DNA from: Phoronis australis | Taxonomy: Eukaryota > Animalia > Phoronida | Assembly (NCBI GenBank): GCA_002633005.1 | Contig: NMRA01000252.1 | Span: 172,267-229,777, forward strand | Reading direction: 5' to 3' | DNA: 57,511 bases | Part shown: piece after piece, positions 3 through 50,105 of the stretch | Numbering within the stretch: position 1 is the first letter of the stretch | Layout: the number at the start of each line of letters is the position of its first letter | Program-made: the position numbers and the translations under genes | The notes under the pieces: generated by a model | Database searches by the model: none | What the model was told of the DNA's origin: nothing | What the model saw: only the letters and a program-made list of their open reading frames with translations

Positions 3-438
3 GCGTGTCGACGATGTGGCCAGTGTTTTAAATACTCCAGTGGAGCAGACGAAGACGGTCATCTGTCACCCTACGTTTACGATCTTGTCGTGGCTCTGTG
101 TGGAAGACGGATTGAAGAGGCCATGGTACGCGTGATTCCAGCTGCCCGGGACCGTATGCTGGATTTGTGCAAAGGATGCGGGAAGCCATTTTTTACTGGT
201 CGCTGTTGTCCACCCGGGAACTGCTGTGGATGCGGCTGTGGCGGATGCGGGGGTGGGTGCGGGGGTGGGTGCAGAGGCGGGTGCGGAGGTGGATGCGGGT
301 GCTGTTCTAGAGGAGGCATCTGCTGTGGTAACGACCCAACAAAGACGCCTGCCTGCTTTGATCCGTGTCCGCCGTGTCCACCGATCGGGACGTACCAAGC
401 GTACATGTCACTACCGTGGATGCCTCGTCTTGGCCCGT
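3..438 (+). CDS. G0: partial exon (5'-truncated by window edge) of a Cys/Gly-rich protein with module A and a (C/G)n + PCPPCPP tail
   Basis: Frame of ORF 90..575 is open from position 3 (ACRRCGQCF...). Module A at 96-200, followed by CCPPGNCCGCGCGGCGGGCGGGC. Strong donor T|GTAAGT at 438/439 (phase 1). Confidence 0.75.
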
Positions 439-638
439 GTAAGTATGACGTAACATACTCTCATCAACTGTTCTCAGTAGTCTCGGAGCCCAAGTCTCTG
501 ACTATTACACTTCACTTCGTCCTAAAGGTGGCAGGCTCCAAAGAAATTCTAAAATCGTTTATCTTCTTTGACTAATAGTATGCATGAAAATTTAAAATGT
601 TCTGCTTTACTGTTATTTAGTTTCTATCCACATAGCAT

Positions 639-858
639 ACGCGCACCCAGCCTTTAATATGGGAGGCTCGAATTTCTGGCGATGTGGACCTTTTGCTGAC
701 AAAAAAGCAGCAGGACTAAAAAAGGGGGGTACCACCTTCAGAACAGTTGTGTGTCTGCGCCTTTTTAGTGGATTTTTGTCTCGTTTTCTCGGGTCTTTTT
801 GTTTCTCTGTGGCCGACTTTTTGCCCTCCGAGCCACCTCTCTGACCTGGGTGCGTGCA
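639..858. mobile_element. Small MITE-like insertion
   Basis: Imperfect inverted ends GCGCACCCAG...GGAGGCTCG and CGAGCCACC...CTGGGTGCGTGC around ~220 bp of non-coding DNA; no clear TSD. Confidence 0.3.
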
Positions 859-1879: not shown

Positions 1880-1954
1880 GAACCCCAAGTGGGAGTCGAA
1901 CCACAAGCCTTTAGGTTGCCGGTCTAGTGCTCTTACCTCTGAACTACTGAGGAC
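1880..1954 (-). mobile_element. tRNA-derived SINE head or tRNA pseudogene (possibly Cys-like)
   Basis: Minus strand reads CCTCAGTAGTTCAGAGGTAAGAGCACTAGACCGGCAACCTAAAGGCTTGTGGTTCGACTCCCACTTGGGG, with Pol III A-box-like and B-box (GGTTCGACTCC) motifs. Anticodon arm pairs poorly. Confidence 0.6.
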
Positions 1955-2497: not shown

Positions 2498-5072
2498 ATG
2501 TTAGCTACACTCAGATCAAAGAACAATTCGGCCCAGTATGATGTAGACGTTACAGAAGCAACAACGGCTGATCACAGAAAAATTCACAAAAAGAAGAAGA
2601 AAAAAGGTAAAAACAAAGAACCAACTGAAGACAAAGTTGAGGAATGTGTCGACGGAGTACAGCAAGACGTGGACATTGTGAAACAGGGTACTAAAAATAG
2701 CAAGAAGAAACACGGCAAAAGTGAAGACACAGAACACAAGGGGAACGAAACGGAATCAAATGTGAAAATGAACTTGGGACCAGCAACTGGTGAAAATGAG
2801 GAACACGAGGACGGAAGGAGAGAAAAGAAAAAGAAGAAGAAAAGGAAAGAGAGAGAAAACTATGAGAAAGAAAGTCCAACCACGTTGGTCAAAGAAACAA
2901 GAAATGACAGTCTCGGAGGTAAGGTCGAGACTAACGAATCCAGAAATAAAAAAGACAGCGAAGTTAAGAAAAAGAAAAAGTCTAAAAATAAACACGGTGA
3001 TGTTGACCAAACAACAAGTGGTGACATCAAAGATAGTGAAACAAATGAAATTGAACTATTTCAAGAAATCGTTAATCACGACGATGATCAAAAAACAAAA
3101 CCAGGGGGCGTTAAAGAAGACAAAACAAACAAGAGTGTTGACAAAATCCAGACATCTGAAAATTTGCATGATACATTGGTTACCAAAGGGAGTGAAGAAA
3201 TTACGAAAAGTGAAATTCCCGTTGGAGCGATAGGAAATGAGGTTGCAGAAACCACTAGCAGCAGCAAGAAAGAAAACAAGAAAAAAGGAAGGTCTAAACA
3301 AAAATCTCAACAAAACACAAATCTTGAAAACGGCACATCTCCTACTGAGGGAAAACCCCACAAAGAAAGCCTCAAGCGGAAAGAGAATGCAGAGACGACA
3401 AAGAAAAATATAAGCGATAGAAATGATACGGGAAAAAACAGCTCCAAGCCGAAAAAGCATCGCCATAAAAGTGGTGGGCATCAAGACGAAAAGGAGACAA
3501 GTTCAGCCTACAATGAGAGAAATTTAAAAGAACGAAGTTTTGAAAATATCGCAACTATTGAGTCAGGTGAGAATGTAGCAGGCGATGAGCATGAGCAGAC
3601 TAAACGACGTAAGAGCAGACGCAAGTCTAAAAACCGTCACGAAAAAAGTGGTGGAAAAGATAAAGAGGAAATGGCAGTGTCAGCTAGTCAAGAAAAGGTT
3701 GTCAAACCACAAAGTTTTCAAAGTGCAATAAATCTCGAAGCGGGTAGCGCCACTGGGTACAATACGACAGGCGATAAACACGAGGAAACCAAAAGGGACA
3801 GAAAAAGCTCTCAGACTAGAAATACACGCCATAAAAATGTTGACAATGTTGAGGATAAGGATGCGATTTCAGCTAGTTATGAAAAAAATATCAAAAAAAC
3901 GAAAAATGCCGCAACGATCGAAGCAGATGAGACGACAGCATCCAAGACAAAAATGCACCGCGATAAAAGTGGAGGAAATGAATATGAAAAGAAAGGAATT
4001 TTAGCTATCCATGGGAAGAGTCTGAAACAAAGCTATAAGCATGCCACGGGCAGCAAGACAGAAAGCGATGACTTAACAGAATTCAAAGATCACAAAAAAC
4101 ATACACGAAAATGTTCCAATGCGCCCTCTGACAAAAGCAATGATAATCAATACAGCAACGGGAAAGAACTGGAACGAGACAGTCGTAAAAACATAAATTA
4201 TGTCAGAAAACACAGAAGAGAGCATTCAGACCGCATTGGAGATGCTAATGATTTTGACGAATTCCTCAAGCCATCTGAACAAACCAGTGACGGTGACCTA
4301 TATAACCTTGTACAAGAAGACGACGTTCCAGCCAGTGAAAACGAATCGGACGATGATCAGGACTTCGGTGAACTACTAATAAGCAACGATAACGCTTCAT
4401 CTGTAGTTGGACTGCTTGGCGAAATCGAACAAAGACAAAAAATAGAGATTCCACCGAATGCAAGTAAACCAGGCATTCTGAGAAAAACAATTGGGGAGAA
4501 ACAAAAAGAGCAAATGGAAAGGAGGTCTTCGGAGGGAGAAAAAAATTCCCCACCGGATTTCTTAAAGGTTCCAAGCATGAAAGAAATAATGAAAGATAAA
4601 AAGAAACAGCGGAAGGGAGCAAAGGAAGCTAAACGATTACAGAAAAAGTCAGCAGCCATGAAAGGTGAAGACAGTGACCAGTCCAATCAATCACATACTG
4701 GTGAAATCGAAGAAGATGACTATGAACAACATTTGCACTTCCACAATTATTTGGGAAAACGGGAACCTGGTACCAGAGAACATCCTACAGACGGTACCGA
4801 CGCATCCCGAGATACCAATGAATTCAAACGCCTTGCAGCGAAATTCGAAGTATTGAGCAACAAAGAAGAAGGTGACCAATCGAGCTCGACGATGAGATCA
4901 ACCACAAGTGACACAACATCCTATCCATTTCAGGAAAGTTCTTCTTTTGCAAATGAACAGCTAAGAAAGGAACTATCACAACTTCGAAGGAGGATTTACT
5001 CGCTTGAACATTTTGAAAACAAACCACTTGTTAAACCAGGAAGTCATTTCATAACTCGAGTTGGAAGCATGG
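2498..5072 (+). CDS. G1 exon 1: very long Lys/Glu/Ser-rich low-complexity region ending in a short predicted coiled coil
   Basis: 909-codon ORF 2366..5095; first in-frame ATG at 2498. Poly-K tracts; EQLRKELSQLRRRIYSLE at 4955-5008. Putative GC donor G|GCAAGT at 5072/5073 (phase 1). Confidence 0.8.
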
Positions 5073-5474
5073 GCAAGTGTTTTTATTTCTGTTAAGTTTT
5101 GGTCGTTTTCATGGTAGACTATATTTGTGTGTTTAGCCTTTTCTTGCGTCTAGTGTTACTCCGTGTTTGTTGTTGAAATACAAGTGACAATGTAAAGTAG
5201 ATGAATACGGACACTTGTTAAAAACTACCAATATGAAATGTGTACCAACCAATTGATTTGATGGGCCCAGGAGGCGGAAATTGTTGGTCTTTTTGTGGAA
5301 AATGAAGGTCTGATTGTTGACCATCCGCGGGTCAGAAATGTGAAGCTCTCAGCTAGATGTCTATAATTCCATTGTTTATTCCCTTCTCGGCTCGTTGATT
5401 ACAAAACTGTTATGTGAACGGAAAGGAACGACTCTGAGCTTCTGTGTCATTAGAGATGTGCATTTCTTTTCTAG

Positions 5475-7117
5475 CTCCTTCCTGGGTAAATGAAATAGCT
5501 AAAAAGGCCAGACCTGTAATTAATCCTTTTACGATGAACTATCAGCCATTAACTCCGGAAACAGCGCAAAAATATCCAAGCCTGTCCAAATGCGGCCAAT
5601 GCAAAATTTGCAATAAGGAGATAACTGACTTTCGTGACGTGATCAACTGTAAACGGTGCAGTAAACCAATTCCGCAAGGACAGGTGAACGAAATGAAAAT
5701 CGGTCAAGATGACCATAATTCTAAAAGCAACTCGCCATTTGATCCACGATTCTACTTCCATGAACCAGATATTGCGTATGGAAAAGTTGCTGATGACCAA
5801 GAGAAATCAAGAGAAACCAACTATGGACACGGTGACCTTGGTATTGGAGAGTTTATGGGACCCGATGGGAAGATGAGGCAATGCTTGGTTTGCTTTGACG
5901 TGCATCTGCTTCCCGTCTCGGAGAGTGAAACCTTTGATGACACAAATACCTCAGCTGAAGACAGTACCAATACCCTAAGTGAGTTGTTTCAAAACAGAAA
6001 TCAACATGAAAACACTGTGCCTACGAAGCAAAAGCCTTCGGAAAACAAGTTTCAACTTCAAGGGGAGCCAATTCACATTCTTCGCGAGAAGCGGGGCTGC
6101 GGTGGTTGTGGTGGGAATTGTGCTTGCGCAAGAAATGCTGCTGCGAAATACAGAAAGTTGGGTAGTAATGTGCCTAATGCTGGGCCGTCGCTGACACCGA
6201 AAGATATTTATTCTGACGACCGCACTGTTGTGCGTTCAGAGCAACCTGCCTATAACAAGCATACTGTCCAAAGAAAAAACCCAATTTCTTCATTGAACGA
6301 CAGGACGCTCGCAAACAATAAGGCGATGAACCACCTGCAAAGTGGTCTTAGAGATCAGTTATATGCCAGTTATGCAACCGCCAATAACTCCGCAAGGAAC
6401 TCATCTTACTATTTTGTACCTCAGCCACAAAATGTTCACTTCCCCACGAGCACCGCCGATTCGTCACGAAGCTCATCTGATTCAGAGAGCAGTTCAGAAA
6501 CTGACAGTGACTCCATTAGGAACTGGTTAGAGCTACTGAGAAACAACAAGGATAATTGGCATCCCGATTCACCGATTGCCAATAATGTTTACAAAGAAAG
6601 ACGTTTAAGAGGTTTTTCAGACAATACATCTCCACAGCCATCAAGTTCTCGTTCTCGCAAACCTGTTTATAAACCCGGGTCAAGCAGCAAGCGTGTTCCG
6701 TATAACTCATCACTTAAAGCAAAGAACAACAACGCGAACTTGCAAGATTCTGTCGGAAAACTGTCCACTTCTTTGTGCAGGCAACGTGTAATGCAAGCAA
6801 TGCATTGGATATTGCCAGCAACCAAAAACGGCAAGCTGGCTATATGTAAGAAATGTTCCAAACCTGTGTTTTCTGGGGAGCTTATATGCTCCTCGGAAAA
6901 CAAGGTCACAATGAGATATCCAAAATGCCGGTGTTCGAAAAGTGCCGTTGCATACACGGTTGATATCCACGAAGAGACGTCCACTTTGTTGGATTCCCTG
7001 AACAAACAGGTTAGCAAAAAGGCATCGAAGAAACTGCACAATGAAGTGCCCCCAGCTTCTAGTAAACAGATTGTTCACAAAACCCTGAGTAACATGGTTG
7101 ACAGAGAATTTATCAAG
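5475..7117 (+). CDS. G1 exon 2: module B (N-terminal), Ser-rich linker, module A (C-terminal)
   Basis: ORF 5444..7132. Acceptor CATTTCTTTTCTAG ends at 5474 (phase 1, matching the exon 1 donor); donor AAG|GTAATT at 7117/7118 (phase 0). Clear similarity to G2 exon 2 (module B) and to G0/G3/G4 (module A). Confidence 0.85.
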
Positions 7118-7790
7118 GTAATTATCATTTGAGTTATTGAGCCAGCTGTGCGCGAAAAAATATCACCAAAACCGGCTTCAAAGCAGACTTTCGTCACAAA
7201 AACATTTGCCTCTTATCGTCATGAAAGTGGCCTAAAAATGTGTGAAACGTCGGTTATTGCTTGAGACCATGTTGCGTTCATTGTATGTTGGTTCGTCACG
7301 ACGTATCATGTTATGCACCCAGCATGCTTTCAAGAAACAACGAACTGTAGGTTGTTTGCACACTCAGAAACATTTTTTCATCTGAGTAAGGAACAAATTG
7401 AAATGCATTTTACAGGGGTAAGAGGCCTAGCTCTAAACTTTGTTTGTTGGTCGGAACGCAGGTTTATGGCTGCTTTGAGCTGCGTAGTGATGGTAACAGA
7501 CTAAACAGGACTTAGTAATGGGCTTACGTTTGAACTGATTATTCGACATTAGAATTATCCACCCAAAGTCTTCGCAGAACTGGAAAACGTGCGCCCTTTT
7601 TATATTAACTTCTTTAGTGCTAGGTCCGCCACCACCAGCTAACGACAAAAAAATCTCGGCGCGAATAAAATACACACAGTACTTGAGCTCAAAATCAAGA
7701 ACATTTTTCTGCCCAAAGAAACTAAGATAAGATCAAGTTTGAGTTTCGACATTCAACCTTTGGGCCCTGAGATTTGATTACCTTTTGTAG

Positions 7791-13046: not shown

Positions 13047-14139
13047 ATGAGTCCGTCACAGGTCAAGTGCTGTCACAAGCAGTGTGCAAACCAGGAATAC
13101 AATTATACAACACTACACGATCACAAACGGAATGTGAATGGGATACCAATGTGCAAAAGAAAGAAGGAAACGATACGACAGAAAGATATAAACAGAAAAC
13201 TTGGAGCACAACGGAAGATCCTTTTAAGAAACATGCAGAGTATTGAAGATTGGGTGAAGAACCAGATTTGGACAAAAGGAGATACTAGTGACGACATCAC
13301 ACAGTACAATCGTTTACAACTCCTGCCTACAGAATGCCAAGACACAACCAATACGTTGGCTATGGAATGCAAAGGTGACCAGTATACTGCTAACGAAAAA
13401 AATCAGCGTCTTCGCCGTGACCATTGTTTGTACGATTGCACCCATTTCTGTAGTAAGCCAAACGATTTTGAGAACTTTGAAAATCGAATGGTTCAAAATC
13501 ACGGCGATACATTTAACCGGCAAAAAAGTCGTATCTCGTTAAATTTTAGCAGCAAAAAAAGGAAACGGCACAAAAAGAAGTTTAACATGAAACGTGACGT
13601 GATAGCAAAAAAAGAGAATAGCACAGACAGTAAGTATTCGCGAAACAAAAATAAACAAGAGACAACAAAGAAAGAAAAGATAGATACCACGAAAAAAAAC
13701 AAAAAGTCGAAAAGAAGTGTCTCAAATATTACGAAAGCCTCATCAACAACAGACGCTTCCAGGATAAAACGGAAGAAGAAGAAAGAAAAAGAAAAGAAAT
13801 CTAGTCAATCTACACCGGAGTTGACCACTTCACAAGAAAAACAAGATGCACCTGTCTACAAAGAACCAGGTGTGGAGGAGGCAAAAACTGTTGAAGAAGA
13901 CCATGACGAAACAGCGTGCATTTCAAAAAGAGCGTCTTTTTCAAGTGAGGACGAGAAAGCAATGCGAGACGAACTTCAAAAACTTAAAGAAAAAGTTCGT
14001 TCACTGGAAAGCGACTTGGGTATTTCCGGGGGAAGCGAATTGCATTCGTCACAAGAAAGTTACCGTGAGCTTCATCGCATACGGTTAGAAAGGTACATGG
14101 GCAGAAAGGAAAAAAGACGCGTCCAAACAAAAAAATCGA
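13047..14139 (+). CDS. G2 exon 1: Lys-rich region plus short predicted coiled coil, paralogous in layout to G1 exon 1
   Basis: ORF 12990..14207, first ATG at 13047 (true start uncertain). AMRDELQKLKEKVRSLE at 13959-14009 resembles G1 EQLRKELSQLRRRIYSLE. Canonical donor A|GTAAGT at 14139/14140 (phase 1). Confidence 0.75.
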
Positions 14140-15642
14140 GTAAGTACAGTGAACATGGGGCTTCTGTTTCCGTGTTTCTTAGTCGTATTCCTAGTACGAG
14201 GATATAACGTCCCGGCAAGCATAGCCTCAACGGTTTTCAACCTTGAGCACTATAGTTAAAAATGTCCACGCAACATATTTGTGTTTCAAACTTGAGCAGA
14301 TCCCATTGTACATAGAAATAGCATTTTGGTGTAACCTGGACTCAAAAAAATCGAATTCGAAATTATCTTTCACATTTTCCGTTCTGTTAATGACCTTCAC
14401 AACACCTATATCTTAGTCTGCTCTCCAGCAGATTATGGTTTACGCATATGAGAGTCTTTCCAACTTTGCAAAGTCTGGGTTCGAGTTCAAAATCGATATT
14501 TCAAGAAATACTCAAAACTGGGAGTTCAGAATGGTGGAATCACCAAATGCAAAATAGGACTAAGCAGTCATCCATTTCAACCGTAATATCCTTGGGTGCA
14601 GAACAATAAACAAGAATCTTGACCTCTTACTATAGTGGAATAGAACATGTCATTTGGAGTAAAAAAGTTAGGCCCTAGGCCTGGACTTGTGAAAAAATGC
14701 GTAAATGCGTTAAGCCAGCAAGCGTTCGTGCAATGTTTTTTTTTGTAATTATCGAGGGTTTTCACCGTGTATAATACTTAAAAACGTTAAATCTAATTTT
14801 GAATTTTAAAGTAAAGTTAATAATTTTTGGTTTCTCCTCACGTGATGTCATCAGTGGAAGATGAGTTGACAGCATGTGTACTTGTATAATGGCGGTGGTA
14901 GCGATTGTAAGCTACGAACACTTAAATAGCAAGATTGACGAATATCATTAAGGCAGGAATGCAGATGGGGGTGAAGACGACACTCCAGACATATTTGAAA
15001 CAGAAAACAAGTTAAACCTCGCCATTTCGGCAGACTTTGCGTGCTTGTACGAACTCAACCCACCTACACCGGCGAGTGACCCCGAGTAAGAGCATATTCA
15101 GTTTACGGACACTAGTCCTGATTTCAGAACTAATATTTCTGAGGGGTATTTACATTTTTATATTGAATCGCGATTTAATTTTCAAAACTCTTTAGTGTCA
15201 AGAAGTATGCATATGTCTGGAACTGTTAATCTATAAGCAAAGGTTGTACCCTGTCTAAGTTCAGCAGAGAATAGCAGCAAAATTGAATTCATTTCTTCGA
15301 ATGCCAAGAACGATCATAACTAATTATGGTGATGCTAACTGGATTTTATTTCTGATAAATGATACTCGTTTCTGTCTTGTCTGTCCCAAACTTTTGAAAA
15401 CTTTGTACTGATTTTTCGTCGGATATTTCGGTCTCATAGTGCCCGACTTCGGTCTCTGTTCCGGCTATTGCGGTCGGTGACTTCAAACTATTTGCTGGGC
15501 TTCTGCTTTAAATTTCTACGATTGGGCATTGACATATATGTTGATAGCATGCATTTCCACAAACTCTTGAAAAATAATATAGACTGATGGAAACTTACTG
15601 CAATCATATTTATTATCTCAGTCACAATTCGATGCCGAGGCT

Positions 15643-15731
15643 CTCAATATGTGCCTGACAACTACGTTCCCGGCAATGGTACGACACTCATACTTAATAT
15701 GTGTCTGACAACCGCGTTCCCAGCTATTGTA
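15643..15731. repeat. Left remnant of the 50-bp minisatellite
   Basis: ~1.7 copies of the unit found at 17384-18190. Confidence 0.85.
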
Positions 15732-15740
15732 GTCAGATAT

Positions 15741-17380
15741 TGTCGTATAAAAGTGAACTGAATGTGGAAACTGAGAAGCCATGTTTATTCACCATTACAT
15801 GAGTCAGGAACAGGACACACAGAAGTATGGGTAACTCATGAAATTGGGTCACAGTCCACGGGAGATAGATGACCCACTAACTCATAACACTGACAATAGG
15901 TGGCGCTAGTGACATCCATTTAACAGTTCACAACATTTCTCCACACTTAGTTGAAGGAAAACCGAAAACAACAACTAACAACAGCACAGTTCACGAATCT
16001 CTAAGGAACTCTCTTGGAATATGTCAAACGATCGGGAGGTTTAGAGACTCGTGCATTGCGACGTAACGGAAGAGCAACTGGGGTTACGCGGCGAGTTCGA
16101 AATACCAGCAGTAACATCATCCTGAGTCCCTTCTGTTGTGGGAACAGGAATTGTGGACGAGGAGTCAACAGGAATGTCCAAATTTGACGGTTCCATGACT
16201 GTTTTGTGTTCAGTGTCCAAAGAAGCTCTGGCACTTTCGGTTTCATTTGACTGACTTGACGTTAACTCGTCGTCCACCTTCACATCATCTGAAAGACCAA
16301 TCAGATGATCAACATGACCAAATCTAACTTTTCCCTGGGCTTTAACCAGATACGTAAGTGGTCCACACACTCTCACAATACAACCTTTGATCCACTTGTC
16401 CCTGCCCTTATTGTGGTTTCTTACCAAAACAGGTTGAAACATTTCCAAAGTTTTCAATTTACTGCTAACATCTACAGCATTAGACTTACATTCAATAGAC
16501 TCTGCAGAGTTTGCTTTCAACAAGGAAAAACGAATTCTGGGTTCTCGTTTCAAAAGTATCTCCGCTGGAGTTTTACCCGTGACACTGTGTAGTGTGTTAC
16601 GATAACTCATCAAAAAACTACCGTAATCCGTGATTAAGAGTACTGTATGCCTTGTTATCGTGAACCTGAGGGATCAAAGCTTGCTTAATAGTCTGAACCC
16701 CTCTTTCTGCACTACCATTTGAGGCTGGATGGTAAGGAGGTACTAAAACTTGCTTAGCGCCATTCACCTCAAGAAAAATACGAAAATCAGCCGACGTGAA
16801 CTGAGGTCCATTATCGGAAACTACTTGTTCCGGCACACCATAAGCCGCAAATAAACGTATCAGAATGTCAATAGTCTTTTCACCAGTAACACTAGCCATG
16901 GCGAAAACTTCAAGCCATCTAAAATAGGTGTCTACAATAATAACAAAGTACTGTCCTTCCTTTTCAGCATAATCTATATGTATACGTTGCCAAATTCTAG
17001 TCGAACGAGGCCATGGCAACTTAAAGCAAGAAGGTGCATTGCGTGAATGCAGACACGCATCACACGAACTAACAACATCCTCAATTGATTTATCAATCCT
17101 AGGCCACCACACATGACTACGTACTGAGGCCTTCATTCGGGAGGTACCAGGATGTTCAAAATACAGTTTACTTAAAATTGTTTCCTGAGTTTAGTAGGGA
17201 TATCAACTCGTAAGCCCCACAACAGACAACCCTTGTCAACCGATAACTCGCCTTTGCGAGTATCTGGCCTCAAATCCTCATCTGGACAAAAACTAGGCCA
17301 ACCCTTAAAAGATAACTGATAAACCTGAGCCATCACAGAGTAGGACTTAGTCTTACTAGCAATATCACTAACTTAGCTTC
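15741..17380 (-). mobile_element. 5'-truncated Ty3/Gypsy LTR retrotransposon: degenerate integrase plus 3' LTR (~15741-15935)
   Basis: HPG..RMKASVRSHVWWP..C..C zinc finger, RIHIDYA, VSDNGPQF, YHPASNGSAERGVQ, YRNTLHSVTGKTPAE and a GPLTY tail; frameshift near 16616. On the minus strand a purine tract precedes TGTTG at 15935, there is an internal AATAAA (15784-15789), and the LTR ends CGACA at 15741. Confidence 0.9.
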
Positions 17381-17383
17381 AAG

Positions 17384-18190
17384 GGTACAACACTCATACT
17401 CAATATGTGCCTGACAATCACGTTCCCAGCAATGGTACAACACTCATACACAATATGTGCTTGACAACCACGTTCTCAGCAATGGTACAACACTCATACT
17501 CAATATGTGCCTGACAACCACTTTCCCGGTAATGGCACAACACTCATACTCAATATGTGCCTAAAAACCACTTTCCCGGCAATGGTACAACACTCATACT
17601 CAATATGTGCCTGACAACTACGTTCCCAGCAGTTGTACAACACTCATACTCAATATCTGCCCGACAACCACGTTCTCAGTAATGACGCATTACTCATATT
17701 CAATATGTGCCTGACAACCACGTTCCCAGTAATGGTACAACACTCATACTCAATATTTGCCTGACAACCACGTTCCCAGCAATAAATGATACAACACTCG
17801 TACTCAATATGTGCCTGACAACCACGTTTCCAGCAATAAATGGTACAATACTCATACTCAATATGTGCTTGACAACCACGTTCCCAGTAATGGTACAACA
17901 CTCATACTCATATATGCCTGACAACTACGTTCCCAGCAATGGTACACCACTCATTCTTAATATGTGCCTGAAAACCACGTCCCCAGTAATGGTACAACAC
18001 TCATACTCTTATACGCCTGACAATTACGTTCCCAGCAATGGTACAACACTCATACTCAATATGTGCCGTCAACCACGTACCCAGCAATGGTACAACATTC
18101 ATACTCAATATGTGCCGTCAACCACGTTCCCAGCAATGGTACAACACTGCCTCAATATGTGTCTGACAACCACGTTTCCAGCAATGGTAT
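17384..18190. repeat. Minisatellite, ~50-bp unit x ~16
   Basis: GGTACAACACTCATACTCAATATGTGCCTGACAACCACGTTCCCAGCAAT repeated head-to-tail with point variants and small indels. Confidence 0.97.
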
Positions 18191-18224
18191 AACAAAAACA
18201 CTACATATATTTCGAATGCACTTA

Positions 18225-18590
18225 CATGTTGGAGAAACCTTCATCAAATATCCACTTCTGCGATGGGTTGAAGCACGGTTCTTCAAAATGGGCTGATCAT
18301 AACGTGGCCCCTGAACTGATCGCCTGCACCGTGGATTGACATAACCGTTTCTGACGCACGTACGCACCTGCGCCACTTCTGGGTTATCTTATATCGTCTT
18401 ATGGTAACACAGAAATTGAAATATTGTCTGTCTGACTGCTATTACTGCATCCTTTGCAAACGCACCTTTCCGTAATACTCGTCTAAGGCAATAGTCAAAG
18501 AATGTTAAACTGCATTTATGATTATTGCTCTTCTTGGGGCATGAGTGTAAATCCCTGTTTTCAGAAATGGCCGCCAACTCAGAGCATATG
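18225..18590 (-). pseudogene. Degenerate THAP-domain fragment
   Basis: Minus-strand pieces LHSCPK ... QKWRR ... (frameshift) SAHFEEPCF resemble THAP FHxFP/W/CSxHF motifs; ends at a GTAAGT donor. Confidence 0.35.
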
Positions 18591-18639
18591 AGAAGTGGTA
18601 TTATGGAAATCAAGTAGCGGAGGTTGTCTCCCAATATGA

Positions 18640-19548
18640 ATATCGTGGAATATTTTTACACCAAGATTAGTTTGGTCCAAAGCCACTAAAACTCTGGCAC
18701 GTCAAGGTAGTAAAGCTGCTATGTCTATCTCTGAAATTAGAAACCGGTGCACGGAATTACCATTGAGTCTTTCACTTGAACTGTTTGATAAAATTGCTGT
18801 GCCAACTATGTGCTACGGTGCGGAAATCTGGGGATTCAAAGAATATGAATGGCTTGAAAATGTATTTGTTAAATTCTGTAAAATTGCTCTTGGATTTGGA
18901 AACTCTTGCTCAAATGCAGCTGTATTGGGTTAATGTGGAATTTATCCGCTCTATGCAAAGTACGATGTCACATGTGTAAAATATTGGCTAAAGTTATTGA
19001 AAATGCAACCTACTAGATACGCTAGAGCGGCTTATGACATGCTAGCTGATTTTGATCGGAATGGAAGAAATACTTGGGTATCTTCTGTTAGACAATTGCT
19101 ATCAAAATACGGTTCTTATGAAATTTGGTTGAATCCAGTTGTCACGTGCGAATTCTCGTTTTTAAGTATCTTCGCTCAAAGAGTTAATGACTGCTATGAG
19201 CAAGGTTGGCGATTAGAAATTGAGCATAATGCAAAACTTAAATACTATTGTAACCTTAAGACTCTGTACTGTTTTGAGCCATATCTTAAGTTACCATTAC
19301 ATGACAGTCTTATTCAAGTGTTTACTTTTTTACGTTGCTCCAACCATAGACTACAAGTGGAAGTGGGTAAACATGACAAAGTGGAATATTACAATAGATT
19401 ATGTTTGATTTGCAATGATGGTCTTGTAGAGGATGAATGCCACTTCCTGTTGATTTGCAAGAGATATTGTGAACTTAGGTCACGTTTTATGAAAGAAGTT
19501 CAATGGAAGCATCCAACTAAAGAATCCTGTGCACGCCTTATTTTATGA
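18640..19548 (+). mobile_element. Non-LTR retrotransposon (LINE) ORF2 3' fragment, inactivated
   Basis: LFDKIAVPTMCYGAEIWG, LRCSNHRLQVEVG and RLCLIC..VEDECHFLLIC are typical LINE ORF2 C-terminal motifs. In-frame TAA at 18931. Confidence 0.85.
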
Positions 19549-19653
19549 GTACGTGTGTTTCGTAATGTGATTCGTATTCTAAATCAACCAAACGGGCTGA
19601 TCAAAATGCGCATCCGGTATAGAAGAATTTGCAGAGTTCTGAAGTTTTACAAT

Positions 19654-19949
19654 GCTTTCTTCGTTATACAGAATTGGTTAAATACACGACACTTGTCGTT
19701 GTTAACAGTCTCTATTCCGTTGCGTTCGTATCCTCGGAACAAAGTTCGACACTAACGGAACATTGGTAAAGCAAATGACCAAGAGACGTGGTTGAAAGAC
19801 ATACGCTATTTCGAAACATACTTGTGTTCTCAAGTGGAAATAAAATGACACAGTAACACCACCACAGAGCAAACGGTACGCTGTAGTACCATACACGGCA
19901 CGTGTGAAATACTGCAAAGAATGACACATGAAGGCGGTAACAGGAAAGT
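19654..19949 (+). repeat. Dispersed repeat, inverted copy of 23684-23967
   Basis: GTTCGTATCCTCGGAACAAAGTTCGACAC and GTGGAAATAAAATGACACAGTAA appear as reverse complements at 23770-23900. Confidence 0.9.
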
Positions 19950-19975
19950 GTAGCGTCTAATTGGCTATTACTCAA

Positions 19976-20400
19976 TAAAGAGGTGGATCGTAGAAAACAA
20001 ATCCTGGTGAATAATGGCTACACGAATGCTCTTGTAGACCGTCATATTAGTCGATTCTTATCCAAAAATTATCGTGAATCCACTGCACTTAGCACTGTGT
20101 GACCAAAAAGGTATTTTACAAAAAAAAACTGTTATGTCCGATAATTACCTCTAGGACGAACACGCCATTAACAAACTCAGCTGGGATAATGTTAAAGTTT
20201 GTAAGCCCGATGATTACCTCGATGTCATTACTTGTTATCGGAATAGGAAGTCCTTCAACTTCGTCATGAAAAATAACATTTCTAAAGCGAAAGCCCGCCC
20301 CGTTGCCCATTGTAGTGTTCTTTATGAGTTTGTATGCCCTGTGAGCGAATGTCTTCGTTTAAATGTCAAACAGTAATACATTGGCACCCCCCAATGACTT
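19976..20400 (+). mobile_element. Penelope-like element fragment (RT C-terminal region to GIY-YIG start), degenerate
   Basis: KEVDRRKQILVNNGYTNALVDRHISRFL, then YEFVCPVSEC...YIG with frameshifts. Confidence 0.6.
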
Positions 20401-20899
20401 CAAACATGGGATATGCAGAATCGATCTTTGACGCGTTTCATTGGCTAACATTTTTGGCCATTTTTGCAAATTTCCGGATTCACCAACGAAAGTTTCGGGC
20501 CACTGCATAACACGTAATAAAGCGTTACAAAACAGCGGTGTTTCTACTAATTCTTAAGCGATAAACTTACCAAACTTTGTGGTGGACAAATATGTTTATC
20601 TTTCCCGTAAGATATCCTTATTACATGTACCAAATATCCACGACAATATCCCTGATATCGCACTGCAGCACTGGTCGGTTCCGTTGTTAGCATGCAAGCG
20701 GTGCCCGGAAGACAATCGCGATTCAGAGATGTGCGTCTCTTTTTTATCGCATAGGACAGCCAAAGGGAAAATGACAACCCAATTAATCACCAAACGACGG
20801 CCTAGTCTTTACTTTCAAACCCTTTACTTGTTTCTGGGGCTACGTGCGTGAAATATGATTTGTCTGGTTGTGGCCTTGAAGAGCGAATACGTGAGCTCA

Positions 20900-21885
20900 C
20901 TTGAACCCATGCTATTCACTTATTGTGAAATAGTTTGGCTAATGCTTAGAGTTCACGGATCCCCGCGACATGTACATTGCTGTATACTACCGCCACCAGA
21001 TGACACTGGTGAATCCGTAGAACACCTCATCACTTCAGTTCACAAAATTACTAATAATAATGGCGGTGATTTCAACTGCCCTCACATGCACTGAAACACC
21101 AACTCAACCCCTCTAAACACACCAAACAGAATCCTCTGTGACAAACTTCTTGACATTATTCAAGACAACTTCCTTCAACAAACAGTAACAAAACGTAACC
21201 GTGAAGACAATACACGTGATCTCTTCCTAACAAACAATCCCAGTAGCATTGTTAAAACTGAGGTCATCCCTGTAAATTCTGCTACACAAAAACAAAAACC
21301 TAGAAAATTCTACATATTCAATAAAGGAAAATACGATGAGCTAAAAACATACGTACTGTAGCTACTTTCTGAAACAAGGTCATAATTCCTGCTCCGTAAA
21401 CGACATGTCGTTCGTCTTTTGCAACACATGTCCTTGATGCTACTGAACGCTTCATCCTCCACAAAACTACAAGACCAAAATACCGAATTCCTTGGATAAA
21501 TCCCAAAATTAAAAAAATTCTCAGAAAAAGATACAATCTCTTTCGCCCCTCAAAACGTACTGGTAATGAATCTGACATAGAAAACTTCCTAAATCTTAGG
21601 AAACTAGTCCAACAAGAAACCTGCAAAGCCTCCTGGAATTACATCAACAATATATTACATCTTCCCAAAGTAATAATCCAAAATTATTTTACTCTTTCAT
21701 CAAAAGTCTCAACAAAGGATTACCAAGTATTGCTCCTTTGAAAAAAGATGGCATTCTACACTTTGACCCAAAAACAAAATCATAAATATTAAGCACACAC
21801 TTTCCTCGGTCTTCACAAAAGACGATGGTGCAGATACACCTGACAAGGTTACAAGCCCCTACAATTCAATGCATGATATAACCTC
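20900..21885 (+). mobile_element. CR1/L2-type LINE fragment (AP endonuclease end and linker), degenerate
   Basis: GGDFNCP, DNFLQQ..RNREDNTRDLFLTNNP, PWINPKIKKILRKR and IAPLKKDG motifs with stops and frameshifts; CA-rich sense strand. Confidence 0.8.
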
Positions 21886-22299
21886 ACAAGCCTCGCTGCC
21901 CGGTCTAAAGTCGGTAACGCAGTGATTTCTGCTGGCTTCTCAAAACATTTGCACTTAATAACTCTTCAAGGCATTACAAGTTGTATCTAATGAGAGAATT
22001 TGTTTCAATTTGATATTAGTTATTATTGGTTGGGGAGAGAATAATTCATGTTAAAACAGAACGCACAATAATAAAAGTCAACGTGGCAACTCGCAATCCC
22101 GACTTAGTGTTGATCCGACGAAGACTTCGCAGGTCGATCGTTAGGTTTCACAGGTTATCAATTCAAACAGGAATACACTGATCAAGAAATACTAGAGAAG
22201 CTCCGTGAACGTGCACAGACAACGGAACGTGGACAATTCCCAAAACCGAAAACTCATTAGGCACAACATTTGATTTCAGCCTCAGTCTCTTTTTCTGCC

Positions 22300-22704
22300 C
22301 TGGCGTGAGCTGTTTGGTTAGCCGGGATTTCATCGTTAGTGAAACCAGTGACGACGAAATGCCGACCGCTGACAAACACGGAGAAGTTTCACGGCCTCAT
22401 ACTTGATATTAACGGCGTAGTTATCATTATTCACTACCGCGAGCCACTTCCGAAGCATTATGGGCTCTCGAGGAAATCGAAAAAACATATGCCCGCTTTC
22501 CTCGCAGCTCAAGCGAGAACGATATACTACACCATAGCGGCACTCACTCTGCAGAACTACTGACGTCAGTGCGTCGTTATTCACCTTCCTCACAGGTTAA
22601 CGCGACACCTCTCGGCGAGGTAAGATCCACTGAATACGAGGTGATGTGGATATAGATCGATTAAGACGGTGACAAAAACTGATTTAATCGGGTGACATTC
22701 TCCT
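22300..22704 (-). mobile_element. Left end of a Kolobok-like DNA transposon with degenerate THAP domain
   Basis: FFRFPREPIMLRKWLAVV...RVCQR THAP motifs; minus-strand terminus TTAA|AGGAGAATGTCACCCG. Homologous to 35210-35478. Confidence 0.7.
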
Positions 22705-23683
22705 TTAAAACTAGTGAAATGCGTTTCGATTTGTGACTGACCTATTTTCCCCGTACTTGGAGTATTGAGGAGCAAACTCGAATTACCCGATGGAAACCCC
22801 CACGGAGTCGGGAATTATTTCGAGGCTATGCATATCGTGGAAAACTAATTGCTGAGTTCGTAAACAGCATAAGTATCACATTTTGTTGTGAAATTTGCAT
22901 TCCCGCGGAGCCAATTACGTTATTCTGTTAGGGCATCGTTTCAAGCTTTTTTTTGAGAGATGTTTTTCAAACGTCGAATTGCAAAATTTGAGCTGCGAGC
23001 AAAACGTGGACGGAATTTGCACTCCGAGTTTTTCGGATCTTTAACACCTTTGACGACAGCCAGTAGCATGCAGGTCAGAACTACCAAAATACCGGACACA
23101 TCCTCCCTTTTCACATCGCAAACTTAACTACTCGAATGCACGTGTCAGTAAGAGAGCACTGATTCAACTTTCACGTCGGCAACTTGCCTTGCTCTTTACA
23201 GCCTTTCAATGGCGGTAGTGAAGAACTGTAACGCCGTACCTGCATGAACGAACTCAATTTTGCGATCTGGAATTTGTAAGTATTTAACGCTGCAGGTAAA
23301 AGCATAATTTAAGCATTTTCTCGATGATCTAAAAAAATTAATTTTGGCGCGTAAAAATGGCGGGAAAATTTTGCAACTTGGCATTTATGAATGCGAACTG
23401 GATTTTGAAAATGCAACCTGGGATTTTGGCAAGGTCGCAAAATGCGACCTGTCGATTTTAATAGCGTCGAGCCCTGATTGTTCAAACGGTTTTCTGTTTT
23501 TCCCGTCGGTTATCTAAGCATCTTCAAAATGGCGCCATCCAAGAACATTTTCTGCAATGTCATGAACGTAAAATCAACGGTCAAGAAATTGTGGAAAATG
23601 CGTCAACTCCATACATGGAGCTGCATTTGAAAGTATTGGAGTCCCTTTTGATTGGATTTGAGAAGCCTGCATTTGTTTGCATG

Positions 23684-23967
23684 ACTTTCCTGTTACCCAC
23701 CATTTGTCATTGTTTGCGGTATTTTAGACCTGCCGTGTCCCACTGTGTACATGTAATTTACTAGCTTTTGCTCTGTGGTGGTATTACTGTGTCATTTTAT
23801 TTCCACGTGAGAATAAAGCAAGCATATTTCGAAAAAGCGTGTGTCAGTTGCTTTACCAATGTTCTGTTAGGTGTCGAACTTTGTTCCGAGGATACGAACA
23901 CAATGGAATAAAGATTGTTAATTACGACAGGTGTCGTGTACTTAACCAATTTTGGATAACTGAAAGC
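23684..23967 (-). repeat. Dispersed repeat, inverted partner of 19654-19949
   Basis: Reverse-complement similarity over ~290 bp; ends ~40 bp upstream of the G2 exon 2 acceptor. Confidence 0.9.
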
Positions 23968-24005
23968 GTGCTACCGAAGTACAGCCAATGTTTTCTTCAA
24001 CGTAG

Positions 24006-35478: not shown

Positions 35479-35673
35479 NNNNNNNNNNNNNNNNNNNNNN
35501 NNNNNNNNNNNNNNNNNNNNNNNNNNNNNNNNNNNNNNNNNNNNNNNNNNNNNNNNNNNNNNNNNNNNNNNNNNNNNNNNNNNNNNNNNNNNNNNNNNNN
35601 NNNNNNNNNNNNNNNNNNNNNNNNNNNNNNNNNNNNNNNNNNNNNNNNNNNNNNNNNNNNNNNNNNNNNNNNN
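35479..35673. other. Assembly gap (195 N)
   Basis: Run of N. Confidence 1.
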
Positions 35674-39531: not shown

Positions 39532-39535
39532 TTAA

Positions 39536-46279: not shown

Positions 46280-48445
46280 ATGGGACTGGGTCTCCCCAAA
46301 GACAAAACAATTCACAAAGATACATCAATAAAACATCATATTACTTCGTCCAACGTGGCGCGTTTCCAAGGAAACAGTTCTCTGTCACCGGTATGGCACT
46401 GTTCTCTGTTCACTAACAACTCCAATAGGAATCGCAGGAAAAAACGCCATAGACATAGCCACTCCCTGCCCAAGACGAGCCGTCGTCGGAACCGTCGACA
46501 TTATGCTTCATATTCGTCAGTCACTAGTGTGAGTGACAACAGTAATTTTTTTGATTACCACGATGATTTGGCTAACGAGAACGATAATCTATGGCAAAGT
46601 AACTCGGCTTGGCCAAGTGACTTGAGTGATTCCTGGAGACGTGAAGCGTCGCACAGAAAAAAGAAGAAAAAGAAAAAGAAAAAGAAAAAATCCGGTAAGC
46701 ATCTACCTGATCATGACGAAAACCATCCCCGGCGCATGCCCACGGAACGTCCAAAACCAAACGTTAAGCAGCTTTCTGAACGTGTTAGTGAACTGCGGGC
46801 TGAAGTAGAGTCAGACTTAGCAAAAGGTGTCGACATCAAGAAAAAGTATCAAGACAGAGCTACTAAACAGAAAAAAATAGAAGAAAAAGCGAGACAAGAC
46901 AGGTTGAAAATCTTAAAAATGAGAGCAAGACGTATCAGAATACCTAAAAAAAGGAAGGCTGTTTTGAAACACAAAGGGAAAACTATTGATATAACGGAGC
47001 GATTTCGCAAGAAACTGGAGAAATCCAACTTGGCACCTTTGAAGATTCGAGTATGCGGTGCCCATGGTTGTGGTGCCGTTTGGCCGGTCGTAAATCCGGA
47101 AAGCATACGTTATCCATCCGGCAAACCCGTTATTTTTAAGAATCCTCAAACGTGTCTCAAATGTAACAGTAACAACCAGTCTAATAATGAAAACAATTTT
47201 ATTGACGAAAAAACTGACAACGAGAACAACTGTGCCAGTCCACGCACCCAGCCTCGAAGAGATATTCCGTCACGTGACCGGGAGGTGGGCAGCTTTTCGG
47301 ACATGCGAGGAGGGAGGGGGCAAGTGAGAATCTCACCTTCTTGGTACGAAAGAGGGAGGGAGTTCCCGTCACGTCATAGTCGTGATGACCCAAAAGGCAG
47401 AGGCGGCCCGTCACGCGGAGGGTTAAGGGGCCGAGGCGGACCGCCGCGAGGAGGATTACGAGGCAGAGGAGCTCCGCGACGTTACGGTGCCGGACGTAGC
47501 AGATCTAGTCGACCGCCAACTTTGCTCAGTGGAAAAAGTATAATTAGAACGAAAAATACGAATAAAATGAGTCATCATGTAGGGGATGTCTTCAAGCCGT
47601 GTCCGTGTTGTTGTTGTTGCAGAGAACCTTGCACCTGGTATCCGGTAGAAGATGGCCAAGCTACTGATAGCAAAATATTTCAGGCAGATGCTTTAAATGA
47701 TTTCGTTGACGTACAAACTGAGAAGGCACATAAAACGAAAAACGAAGAGAACAATTCCACGTGCAGTTGCCGATGTTGTGACTCCAGCTTTGAGTCAATA
47801 GACTGCATGAATGAGGTTCTGGACGGTGGATATGGAAAAATAGCTGAAATGTGCGCAGAAAGAATAAAAGATGCACTTGATTGGATTATCCCGGCAGCAC
47901 AATGTGGTGATCTCACCTTATGCGATTTCTGTGATAAACCCGTGCTTGTTGGGCGCCCACACTGCTGCAGGGCATTAAGAACATGCTTCGCAGAGTGTTG
48001 TAAAGACGGTGAGTCCAGTGGGGGGAAACAATATGACTCGGACAAAGATGCCAAAACGAAAAAAGAAAAAGAGAAGAAAAGGAGGGAAATGGAAAAAAAG
48101 AAAAAACAAAATAGTGAAAAAAGTAAGGGCGATGGGAATTCAGATGACAAAAACAGACAGAGAAGAAAAAGAGATGACCAAAACAGACAGAGAAGAAGAA
48201 AGGATGACGAAAACATGGATAATGAGGATGAACACATAAGTTCGAAAGTTTCAAAACACAAAAGGACAGATCCGCCTCCGAAGGAAGGAAAGGAATATTA
48301 CTGGAGCACGAAACCGGAAGAAAAGGAGGAAGAAATTCCCGAGTTATTTAAACATGGCCATTTCCAAAACAGGCAAAAAGACTTAAGACAAACTCCGCCA
48401 AACGAAAACATTAATAGAAACTGTAGCAAACGTTTAAACTGTTAG
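46280..48445 (+). CDS. G3: ~721-aa basic protein (Arg/His tract, poly-K, predicted coiled coil, motif C, RGG repeats, Cys clusters, module A, charged tail)
   Basis: Uninterrupted 723-codon ORF, first ATG at 46280. Module A at 47849-47953, motif C at 47036-47092. Colinear with G4. Confidence 0.85.
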   Translation: MGLGLPKDKTIHKDTSIKHHITSSNVARFQGNSSLSPVWHCSLFTNNSNRNRRKKRHRHSHSLPKTSRRRNRRHYASYSSVTSVSDNSNFFDYHDDLANENDNLWQSNSAWPSDLSDSWRREASHRKKKKKKKKKKKSGKHLPDHDENHPRRMPTERPKPNVKQLSERVSELRAEVESDLAKGVDIKKKYQDRATKQKKIEEKARQDRLKILKMRARRIRIPKKRKAVLKHKGKTIDITERFRKKLEKSNLAPLKIRVCGAHGCGAVWPVVNPESIRYPSGKPVIFKNPQTCLKCNSNNQSNNENNFIDEKTDNENNCASPRTQPRRDIPSRDREVGSFSDMRGGRGQVRISPSWYERGREFPSRHSRDDPKGRGGPSRGGLRGRGGPPRGGLRGRGAPRRYGAGRSRSSRPPTLLSGKSIIRTKNTNKMSHHVGDVFKPCPCCCCCREPCTWYPVEDGQATDSKIFQADALNDFVDVQTEKAHKTKNEENNSTCSCRCCDSSFESIDCMNEVLDGGYGKIAEMCAERIKDALDWIIPAAQCGDLTLCDFCDKPVLVGRPHCCRALRTCFAECCKDGESSGGKQYDSDKDAKTKKEKEKKRREMEKKKKQNSEKSKGDGNSDDKNRQRRKRDDQNRQRRRKDDENMDNEDEHISSKVSKHKRTDPPPKEGKEYYWSTKPEEKEEEIPELFKHGHFQNRQKDLRQTPPNENINRNCSKRLNC

Positions 48446-48716
48446 TTGAATCTTGTTGGAGTCGGGACGGCCTAATCGTTTAAATCAGGCTAAGACTCAA
48501 AACACAACCAAACACCCTGATTCGAATACGTATGCAAGTTTCCTGTAATCGTACCATGCAGTAGATCTAGTATAAAATCATACCCCGGTCTTCATTTCGT
48601 ATTAATTTACATACATGTTTACAAAATTCACGTGATTTAAGGAATGTTGCGGTGATAGTAAAAACATGTTCACGCTCTAAACGACAGCATGTAACCAAAC
48701 TAGCGTTATCGAACTC

Positions 48717-50105
48717 ATGAACTCTCTCATACAGCAAACCCTCAGGCTCAACGAAATCATTCCACTAGAAGACGTTTTGGACAGAGTGGTTGTGTTAGAA
48801 TTGCATAGCGTCACTGCACACAAATCTAATTCCGCAAACTCGAGCAAGGAAACATTTCGATCGGCAATACCATGTAGAAAATGTGGAACCACTTCCTTCA
48901 AAGTTGACGAATTGAACATCACTACAAAGTTACACGAAGAACATGGGAGCAGGTCGCAATCATCAGTTCTCCGTACATCCAACCAAACATATTGCGGTAA
49001 CATCTCAAACAACAGCAGACGACCGTCCAGAGCAAGACGACGACATCATCATCGACATCATTCGCGACAAAGCGATAACGAGTCAAGAAGACAAAGACGA
49101 TCCAAAATTGTTCGATCAAAACGGAGAAGTGGGTCGTCATTGAGGCGAAAACACATGAGGAGAAAGAAAAAGAAGGAGAAAAAGAAAAAGAAAGAAAAGA
49201 AAAAGGGAAAGGAGTTGACAGACAAGCAACAGGCAGAAAAGGATATTATGCAAGCCGCGGGTCAAACAAAAATGACGCGAAGAATGAATGAAAACTGGAT
49301 GAACGTGCATAAACAAAAACGAGATGTTATGAGCTTAGGAGCCAGGTGTAATTTATTAGCAAAAAAGATGAAACTTTTAGAGCAATACCCCGTAAGATCT
49401 GCCAAAAGTTTTATGAAAGCAGCACAAATGATTCCACTTACGGTTCGATGCTGTGGAGCCCCTGCATGCCCGCCTTGTCCGCCGGTAGTAGTCAAGTGTT
49501 GCTCTGAACAGGACTGTCAGGGATGCGGCTGCAAGAAAAATGCGGACACTGTTATAGCCGGCAAAGACATTAAGCGCGATGATTTCGGCAACGACGTCAA
49601 CTTGCAAATAGGCAACGTCGATACTGGAAACGATGACAGGTGTTCGTGCAATAAATGCTGTTCTGTTAAAGCTGGGAAACGTGGTAATAGGGGCAATGTT
49701 TCAATAAATGGACGGAAACTGAGCGACAGGGACTTCATGCAGTCGAAAGGAAACATTGCATTGAACAGATTCCGTGCCGGCAAACGATTTTCTGAAAACG
49801 ACTTTCCGTGTCGAACTAGAATACCACAACTTTGTCAACGTAGAAACTCACGAAGTAGTGACGACTCTGTCGATGCTAACGAGGTATTAGAAGGTGGTTA
49901 CGATAAAATTGCAAACATGTGCATTGACAGAATTAAAAATGCGCTCGATTGGGTTGTACCCGCCGCGAAAAAAGGAGAACTGGAACTTTGTAAGAATTGT
50001 AACAAACCAATCCTCAGTGGAAAAGAACATATTTGTAAAGGTAATCGCTTACCATGGGACACAAAAGTTAGACGGGATAAGAAAGCGAAAAATAATAAAA
50101 AGTGA
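48717..50105 (+). CDS. G4: 462-aa basic protein, tandem paralog of G3
   Basis: ATG-initiated ORF. NEVLEGGYDKIANMCIDRIKNALDWVVPAAKKGELELCKNCNKP aligns with G3 NEVLDGGYGKIAEMCAERIKDALDWIIPAAQCGDLTLCDFCDKP. Motif C at 49434-49490. Confidence 0.88.
   Translation: MNSLIQQTLRLNEIIPLEDVLDRVVVLELHSVTAHKSNSANSSKETFRSAIPCRKCGTTSFKVDELNITTKLHEEHGSRSQSSVLRTSNQTYCGNISNNSRRPSRARRRHHHRHHSRQSDNESRRQRRSKIVRSKRRSGSSLRRKHMRRKKKKEKKKKKEKKKGKELTDKQQAEKDIMQAAGQTKMTRRMNENWMNVHKQKRDVMSLGARCNLLAKKMKLLEQYPVRSAKSFMKAAQMIPLTVRCCGAPACPPCPPVVVKCCSEQDCQGCGCKKNADTVIAGKDIKRDDFGNDVNLQIGNVDTGNDDRCSCNKCCSVKAGKRGNRGNVSINGRKLSDRDFMQSKGNIALNRFRAGKRFSENDFPCRTRIPQLCQRRNSRSSDDSVDANEVLEGGYDKIANMCIDRIKNALDWVVPAAKKGELELCKNCNKPILSGKEHICKGNRLPWDTKVRRDKKAKNNKK

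Follow-up and report, generated by a model that had tools for sequence, protein, structure and literature searches.

A tandem gene cluster in Phoronis australis predicted to encode charge-blocked proteins with two candidate zinc-binding modules

The cylicins, CYLC1 and CYLC2, are lysine-rich structural proteins of the sperm head that are found in the calyx/perinuclear theca and are marked by repeated KKD/KKE motifs and an isoelectric point (pI) above 10 (PMC10684152). Protamines and protamine-like basic proteins of the sperm nucleus (SNBPs) are either very arginine-rich polypeptides of 50-110 aa or H1-type proteins with a winged helix and a basic tail (PMC13148410), and sperm tails contain Cys-rich proteins such as Mst87F and those of the outer dense fibres (PMC12584897). 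Among nucleolar proteins, lysine blocks combined with glutamate-rich regions form a described signature (PMC11938373). In this study, we analyze a cluster of predicted genes, labelled G0 to G4, that resembles each of these systems in part and lies in a 57,511-nucleotide stretch of the genome of the phoronid Phoronis australis (assembly GCA_002633005.1, contig NMRA01000252.1, positions 172,267 to 229,777 of the forward strand). This whole stretch is referred to as the window, and positions are counted from its first letter. The predicted proteins share small cysteine-containing modules, designated A, B and C, and were read from seven open frames (G0, both halves of G1 and of G2, G3, and G4).

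Like the cylicins, the proteins predicted from the cluster are large, lysine-rich and net basic and form a small paralogue family, so that a structural role is conceivable by analogy. They differ in lacking KKD/KKE enrichment (KK[DE] counts of 0, 2, 0, 4, 0, 1 and 2 in the seven frames, against shuffled means of 0, 3.6, 0.4, 1.1, 1.1, 1.4 and 0.7), in having a pI above 10 in G4 only, in carrying Cys modules, and in showing no Pfam or sequence match to the cylicins. With protamine-like SNBPs they share short K/R-rich stretches (up to 56% within 50 residues) and some cysteine, but they are 462-1410 aa long and 10-16% acidic, and a Pfam search at E 0.1 found no histone-H1 (winged-helix) or HMG match in any of the seven frames. 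Proteins of the ODF1, SMCP and Mst87F type are characterized by CGP or Cys-x-Pro repeats, with an alpha-crystallin domain in ODF1. G0 likewise has Cys/Gly and Cys/Pro repeats and G4 a short Cys/Pro stretch (C-x-P occurs 4 times against 2.4 expected in G0, and twice against 0.8 in G4), whereas CGP is absent from all seven frames, Pfam gives no match, and the cysteines of G1-G4 are confined to short modules. Disordered nucleolar proteins such as NUCKS, LYAR and nucleolin resemble the cluster in their blocky lysines, D/E tracts and RGG motifs, of which the cluster has one stretch, but there is no sequence homology, and the cluster consists of lineage-restricted tandem paralogues. Finally, small four-cysteine zinc knuckles (the DksA/TraR finger, UBZ, LIM and RING halves, DUF2688) have CxxC knuckles in common with the modules and give weak Pfam scores, all of them below cut-off; the spacing of module A and the second half of module B find no match among them, and structural Z-scores do not exceed 3.1.

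Shared modules in a constrained family

Our analysis points to a real and, it appears, so far undescribed gene family in which modules A and B are candidates for new zinc-binding domains. The anatomy set out in an earlier note on this DNA is for the most part correct. In agreement with that note, which had placed all long reading frames on one strand, the six stop-free frames of at least 400 codons in the window all lie on the plus strand. An order-2 Markov simulation of the same local composition (300 runs per region) produced longest frames of 185-276 codons, compared with 408-910 observed; since the simulated maxima are far shorter, the six long frames are no artefact of A-rich composition. 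In the region of G0, one of the simulated maxima was as long as the actual frame of 190 codons. Stops are present in the other five frames of each region. In a leave-one-out codon model, six of the seven frames scored positive, G1b barely so, and G0, which has a different composition, was slightly negative; neither this model nor tblastn detected further family-like exons in the window.

Module A, a segment of about 55 aa, is shared by G0, G1b, G3 and G4 as previously claimed (blastp E 3e-6 to 5e-21), with 33-55% identity among the four copies and 12 invariant columns. A profile built from any three copies recovered the fourth in all four trials, with 39.8-78.7 bits and leave-one-out E-values of 3e-23, 1e-19, 2e-14 and 4e-11. 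The cysteine pattern C-x22-C-x2-C-x8-11-C is kept in every copy, and the AlphaFold model (predicted local distance difference test, pLDDT, 75 overall and 85-90 across residues 21-60) places a helix at residues 19-44, followed by a hairpin. From this pattern, module A is predicted to be capable of binding zinc via its four conserved cysteines; a predicted homodimer with zinc scored 0.01. With the AlphaFold model as query, the closest solved structures were listed at E 1.9 by Foldseek and at Z 3.1 by VIA-align.

The sharing of module B between G1b and G2b was also borne out (blastp E 4e-22). It spans about 125 aa with 36% identity between G1 and G2 and begins with CxxC-x12-CxxC; its structure model was unusable (pLDDT 34). 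In the six-frame translation of the window, all six occurrences of the motif C-x2-C-x-K-P fall inside modules A or B, with at least one per gene, and no further copies of either module were found.

Two other shared parts proposed earlier hold with qualifications. The similarity that defines module C in G3 and G4 (score 54) was reached by none of 1000 shuffles, yet it is weak enough to have been missed by blastp at E 10, and the module boundaries had been set by eye. Comparison of module C with the start of module B gave scores reached by 14, 6, 116 and 383 of 500 shuffles in the four pairings, a borderline result on which we make no claim. Coiled coils are present but short; of 1000 shuffles, 4 and 26 scored as high as the G1/G2 pair, and in a crude heptad test the G4 coil was no better than background. 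The notion that the modules are shuffled among the genes was not supported: the order of parts is constant, with a charged region followed by the coiled coil, then B or C, then a linker and finally A, and the pattern can be accounted for equally well by duplications combined with loss and divergence. Within the modules, order-promoting residues make up 0.32-0.38 of the sequence of G1-G4, compared with 0.16-0.24 outside them.

Identity at codon positions 1, 2 and 3 was 0.50, 0.69 and 0.31 for module A (327 aligned codons, six pairs), 0.54, 0.68 and 0.31 for module B (120 codons) and 0.45, 0.67 and 0.31 for module C (42 codons), in protein-guided alignments that somewhat inflate positions 1 and 2. 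Third positions at chance (0.31) combined with second positions at 0.67-0.69 indicate old paralogues under protein-level constraint. Of the 35 residues that are identical between the G3 and G4 copies of module A, 24 are encoded by different codons; the nonsynonymous divergence dN was 0.38 for this pair and 0.57 for module B, while the synonymous divergence dS was saturated and not computable. The earlier proposal of a lineage-restricted family under selection is thus upheld in that the codon pattern is one of constrained paralogues and the libraries searched contain no homologue. Because their coverage of this animal's relatives is uncertain, lineage-restricted here means absent from what was searched.

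No Pfam family reached its curated cut-off for any of the seven frames or of nine module and repeat pieces, and LIM, RING, PHD, FYVE, UBZ, DksA/TraR and DUF2688 were each below it in all nine pieces. The weak scores (10-20 bits) fell mostly on zinc fingers (zf-dskA_traR, Prok-RING_1, zf_UBZ, FYVE and C1_1), with best values of 19.7 bits for DUF2688 against a cut-off of 25, and 15 for zf-dskA_traR against 24.9. In a set of 5.8 billion proteins, searched with a word filter and therefore constituting weak evidence, none of 5431 candidates for G1b (near lengths), 2711 for module A or 2925 for module B (both at longer lengths) was a relative. An unfiltered search of 1.84 billion protein representatives, made with the profile of module A only, returned no true relative; since 37 bits already correspond to E 2e-4 there, a relative as distant as the G0 copy (about 40 bits) should have appeared. 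Three matches to this profile were rejected as repeat proteins by eye (leucine-rich-repeat-like, ankyrin-like and a Cys repeat), their scores being sums of 5-7 short stretches. The ESM Atlas gave best values of 0.75 for A and 0.87 for B, under the 0.9 lead level, PDB sequences gave a best E of 0.36 for module A, and an exact look-up found none of four sequences. A PDB match of module B to an antibody chain (E 0.0012) was rejected, and two metagenome loci matching 15 residues were attributed to chance. Literature searches aimed at such a gene family listed no description of it.

In these searches, the modules matched neither a known domain nor a transposon-encoded protein. The latter result bears on a derivation of the frames from transposon or viral proteins, such as a LINE (long interspersed nuclear element) ORF1-like protein that combines a coiled coil with a zinc knuckle, or a protein of a large DNA virus that became endogenised. 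We regard this as very improbable. The combination of coiled coil, basic region and Cys knuckle does recall the ORF1/gag layouts of retroelements, and the region is rich in transposons, but all seven frames failed to match a transposon family, while the neighbouring remnants, which act as a positive control, gave rve, Integrase_H2C2, THAP and HTH_psq. Moreover, viral contigs (both of two queries) and phage records contained no relative, spliceosomal introns are predicted within the cluster, and no intact polymerase frame lies alongside. Given that the modules are old, constrained and without a relative among the 1.84 billion representatives, we consider them candidate new domain families. They offer ready-made probes for the lineage in which they occur, with the caution that orphan families are frequent where the annotation of invertebrate genomes is poor.

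Gene structures and number of genes

The predicted exons and introns are listed together with the reading frames in Table 1. Splice sites were scored with rough, self-built matrices, to which all percentiles refer. G0 ends in a predicted phase-1 GT donor at 439 (99th percentile), and its proposed second exon was downgraded because it overlaps a short dispersed repeat that recurs at 30864-30902 (match at E 0.006 for DNA and 6e-4 for protein). The GC-AG intron of G1 has a donor at the 98.8th and an acceptor at the 99.2nd percentile, and the joined frame encodes 1410 aa with no internal stop. The two halves of G2 join in frame into 816 aa. The coiled coil and the first CxxC in module B are 64 residues apart in G2 and 66 in G1, a spacing that supports the long G2 join; the junction itself lies 24 and 46 residues past the coil in G1 and G2, respectively, and since these offsets differ, a like intron position in the two genes is not demonstrated.

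Table 1. Reading frames and predicted gene features of the cluster
Feature	Position	Strand	Remarks
G0 frame	3-572	+	190 codons, open at window start
G0 coding exon	3..438	+	cut by window start; module A, Cys/Gly repeat (240-313), Pro/Cys stretch
Module A copy in G0	54..212	+	helix Cys at 99, C-x2-C-x-K-P at 168
G0 possible next exon, doubtful	636..844	+	in frame; AATAAA at 924
G1a frame	2363-5092	+	910 codons
G1 first large exon, from first ATG	2498..5072	+	K-blocks, acidic tracts; short coiled coil near 4952-5014
G1 predicted intron	5073..5474	+	phase-1 GC-AG, 402 nt; non-canonical
G1b frame	5438-7129	+	564 codons
G1 second large exon	5475..7132	+	module B (5576-5929), Ser/Asn-rich linker, module A (~6731-6889)
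G2a frame	12981-14204	+	408 codons
G2 first large exon, from first ATG	13047..14139	+	K-rich region; coiled coil near 13953-14015
G2 predicted intron	14140..24005	+	phase-1 GT-AG, 9,866 nt; holds transposon remnants and 50-bp tandem repeat
G2b frame	23960-25360	+	467 codons
G2 second large exon	24006..25363	+	module B (24035-24424), basic Ser/Lys tail; without module A; AATAAA overlaps stop
G3 frame	46262-48442	+	727 codons
G3 single frame	46280..48445	+	721 codons; R/H and K tracts, coiled coil (~46763-46825), module C (from 47036), RGG-rich stretch (47306-47506), module A (~47810-47980), charged tail
G3 stop to G4 first ATG	48446..48716	+	271-nt gap; one TATAAA at 48571
G4 frame	48681-50102	+	474 codons
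G4 single frame	48717..50105	+	462 codons; R/H and K tracts, module C (from 49434), module A (~49878-50048)

The count of five genes given in the earlier note is the simplest reading of these structures, yet it hangs on predicted splicing. The frames could instead be exons of fewer, larger genes (G0 with G1, G1 with G2, or G3 with G4) in which the modules would be internal repeats; this possibility, which is independent of function, seems unlikely to us. It draws on the doubtful status of the next G0 exon and on a strong phase-0 donor at 7118, four codons before the G1 stop, which makes further G1 exons possible and could be paired with phase-0 acceptors of G2a at the 78th-83rd percentile. In G3, there is a strong internal donor at 48009, and the gene lacks a poly(A) hexamer and ends only 271 nt before G4. 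A merger of G3 and G4 is opposed by the lack of a strong phase-1 acceptor for this donor, looked for at 48030-49100, by the TATAAA in the gap between the two genes, and by the G3 frame itself, which continues past the donor for another 145 codons without a stop and with charged sequence. AATAAA hexamers at the stops of G2 and G4 likewise argue for separate genes.

Composition, possible function and alternatives

The description of these proteins as basic and Cys-rich proved overstated: across G1-G4, K+R amounts to 18-23%, D+E to 10-16% and Cys to 1.3-5%, with 8-11% Ser and a pI of 9.1-10.1 that exceeds 10 in one of the four complete predicted products. The predicted G1-G4 products are large, highly charged polyampholytes. 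Runs of 5-12 K/R residues occur in G1a, G2a, G3 and G4, 50-residue windows with up to 36% D+E lie next to others with up to 56% K+R, and the G3 stretch has 8 RG/RGG motifs against 0.8 expected. The linkers between modules had been called unalignable, which holds for G1 and G2 (alignment scores reached by 145 of 500 shuffles before module B and by 218 of 500 after it) but not for the N-terminal parts of G3 and G4, where the order of tracts is colinear (reached by 1 of 500 shuffles globally and, more weakly, by 11 and 48 of 500 locally).

No hydrophobic leader or signal peptide was found at the first ATG of G1-G4, and the highest 19-residue Kyte-Doolittle mean over the seven frames is 1.15, in line with the previous observation that signal peptides and transmembrane segments are missing. 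These results count against a somatic role in which the proteins, with Cys and Lys as cross-linking residues, would be structural or matrix components in an organ peculiar to the lineage, be it chaetae, cuticle, tube, shell, cement or a hardened layer of cells; secretion would then require missed 5-prime exons. Such a role might be suggested by the Cys/Gly and Pro/Cys repeats of G0, by large low-complexity exons in a tandem cluster, and by the lack of homologues. CxxC knuckles and K-runs, on the other hand, would suit an intracellular, reducing setting, and we consider the matrix role quite unlikely.

CpG is undepleted in the cluster, including synonymous positions: observed/expected ratios are 0.86-1.14 within the frames, and at codon boundaries 192 CpGs against 206 expected give a ratio of 0.93. 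In oyster, housekeeping genes are the methylated, low-CpG ones (PMC3840415). On the assumption of gene-body methylation, undepleted CpG would give a weak hint of restricted expression.

As the best explanation we tentatively propose that the cluster is a tandem array of old paralogues, about five genes in number, that probably encode large, mostly disordered, charge-blocked proteins. These might act as structural scaffolds restricted to certain cell types, with the male germ line as the likeliest setting; this choice of cell type is made by analogy to the lysine-rich proteins of the sperm head (PMC10684152) and the Cys-rich proteins of the sperm tail (PMC12584897). In the ancestral layout, a charged region would have been followed by a short coiled coil, a Cys module in the middle, a linker and module A, and this layout would have been duplicated in place long ago. 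The linkers could then have drifted while retaining their composition, and the middle module could have split into types B and C or been replaced; G2 may have lost module A or may carry it in an undetected exon. Module A (a predicted helix and beta-hairpin knuckle with four Cys) and the CxxC-x12-CxxC head of module B might each coordinate a single zinc ion, and through them the proteins might dock onto a conserved partner. Together with nucleic acid or with one another, the K/R blocks and the acidic tracts might condense into a dense body, for example a perinuclear or flagellar accessory structure, or nuage, in which the cysteines could later be oxidised to cross-links. As the earlier note proposed, the proteins might co-assemble by way of the shared modules.

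The same composition could also belong to nuclear or nucleolar condensate proteins, acting as chromatin or RNA regulators that are not sperm-specific, with K-blocks as localisation signals and stickers and with zinc modules that bind nucleic acid or a partner. We see this as a closely competing, though somewhat less likely, alternative. The K/R runs and the acidic windows beside basic ones recall the K-block and E-rich grammar described for nucleolar proteins (PMC11938373), G3 has its RGG stretch, and the weak Pfam matches are zinc-finger-like. The undepleted CpG and the structural appearance of the G0 Cys/Gly repeat, by contrast, speak against it. General nucleolar machinery is usually conserved across animals, unlike the modules, which are unmatched among the 1.84 billion representatives.

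Several observations weigh against the germ-line scaffold reading. The features that define the sperm families named earlier as precedents (protamine-like SNBPs, cylicins and the ODF1/SMCP/Mst87F type of CGP proteins) are not found in the cluster, though its proteins may nevertheless function in a similar manner. The K-block/E-rich grammar of the cluster, together with the RG/RGG stretch of G3, fits a nucleolar role equally well. Zinc binding is a prediction from the cysteine pattern. Shared ancestry of the A and B knuckles is suggestive only: a knuckle-only profile from module A ranks the B knuckles 5th and 7th, and the match is not significant (E 0.33 and 2.5). The CpG background in the window is also 0.8-0.9, so the genes are not set apart, which is why the hint from CpG is weak. 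To these points may be added the inflation of codon positions 1 and 2 mentioned above.

A bolder, speculative and on balance unlikely proposal is that modules A and B represent two families of zinc-binding domains not described before, which may go back to a single ancestral knuckle and which define a class of germ-cell scaffold proteins that is ancient and confined to one clade. If this were true, an entire lineage of invertebrates would form a structure of the sperm or the nuage from proteins without counterpart in cylicins, ODFs, SNBPs or organisers of the Oskar/Buc type, and its paralogues would keep a fixed docking module while their charged disordered regions turn over. Should the genes be gonad-specific, they would represent an independent route to dense germ-cell structures from disordered charged proteins and small docking domains.

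Repeats and transposon remnants in the window

The window is eukaryotic DNA with 40.7% GC and a CpG observed/expected ratio of 0.90. It contains several tandem repeats, one 195-N gap (35479-35673) and one single N. As stated in the earlier note, decayed transposable elements sit between the genes, with remnants of Gypsy-type integrase (Pfam rve E 2e-13), THAP and HTH_psq. Inside the predicted G2 intron, a broken Gypsy-type retrotransposon with integrase zinc finger and core domain occupies 16044-17372 on the minus strand; it is adjoined by a 50-bp tandem repeat of 16 copies (17380-18194), of which about two extra units lie 1.7 kb off at 15643-15731. Two related THAP-domain remnants (78% identical) are located at 22452-22709 and 35205-35478, one of them running into the 195-N assembly gap.

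Three decayed plus-strand frames (18640-19545, 21095-21738 and 52253-52477) have no Pfam match; by eye, we take them to be LINE reverse-transcriptase/endonuclease and Penelope-type remnants. A remnant at 50962-51228 (+) matches HTH_psq (E 1e-6) and is likely a transposase fragment of the pogo/Tigger type. Between G0 and G1, a tRNA-like Rfam match (1881-1953, minus strand, 33 bits) probably represents the head of a tRNA-derived SINE (short interspersed nuclear element). A dispersed repeat family with an internal tandem unit of about 140 bp is present in both orientations at 36908-37853, 33084-33453 and 29506-29838, and a 480-bp repeat forms an inverted pair (77% identical) at 39058-39533 and 54329-54802 that flanks G3 and G4.

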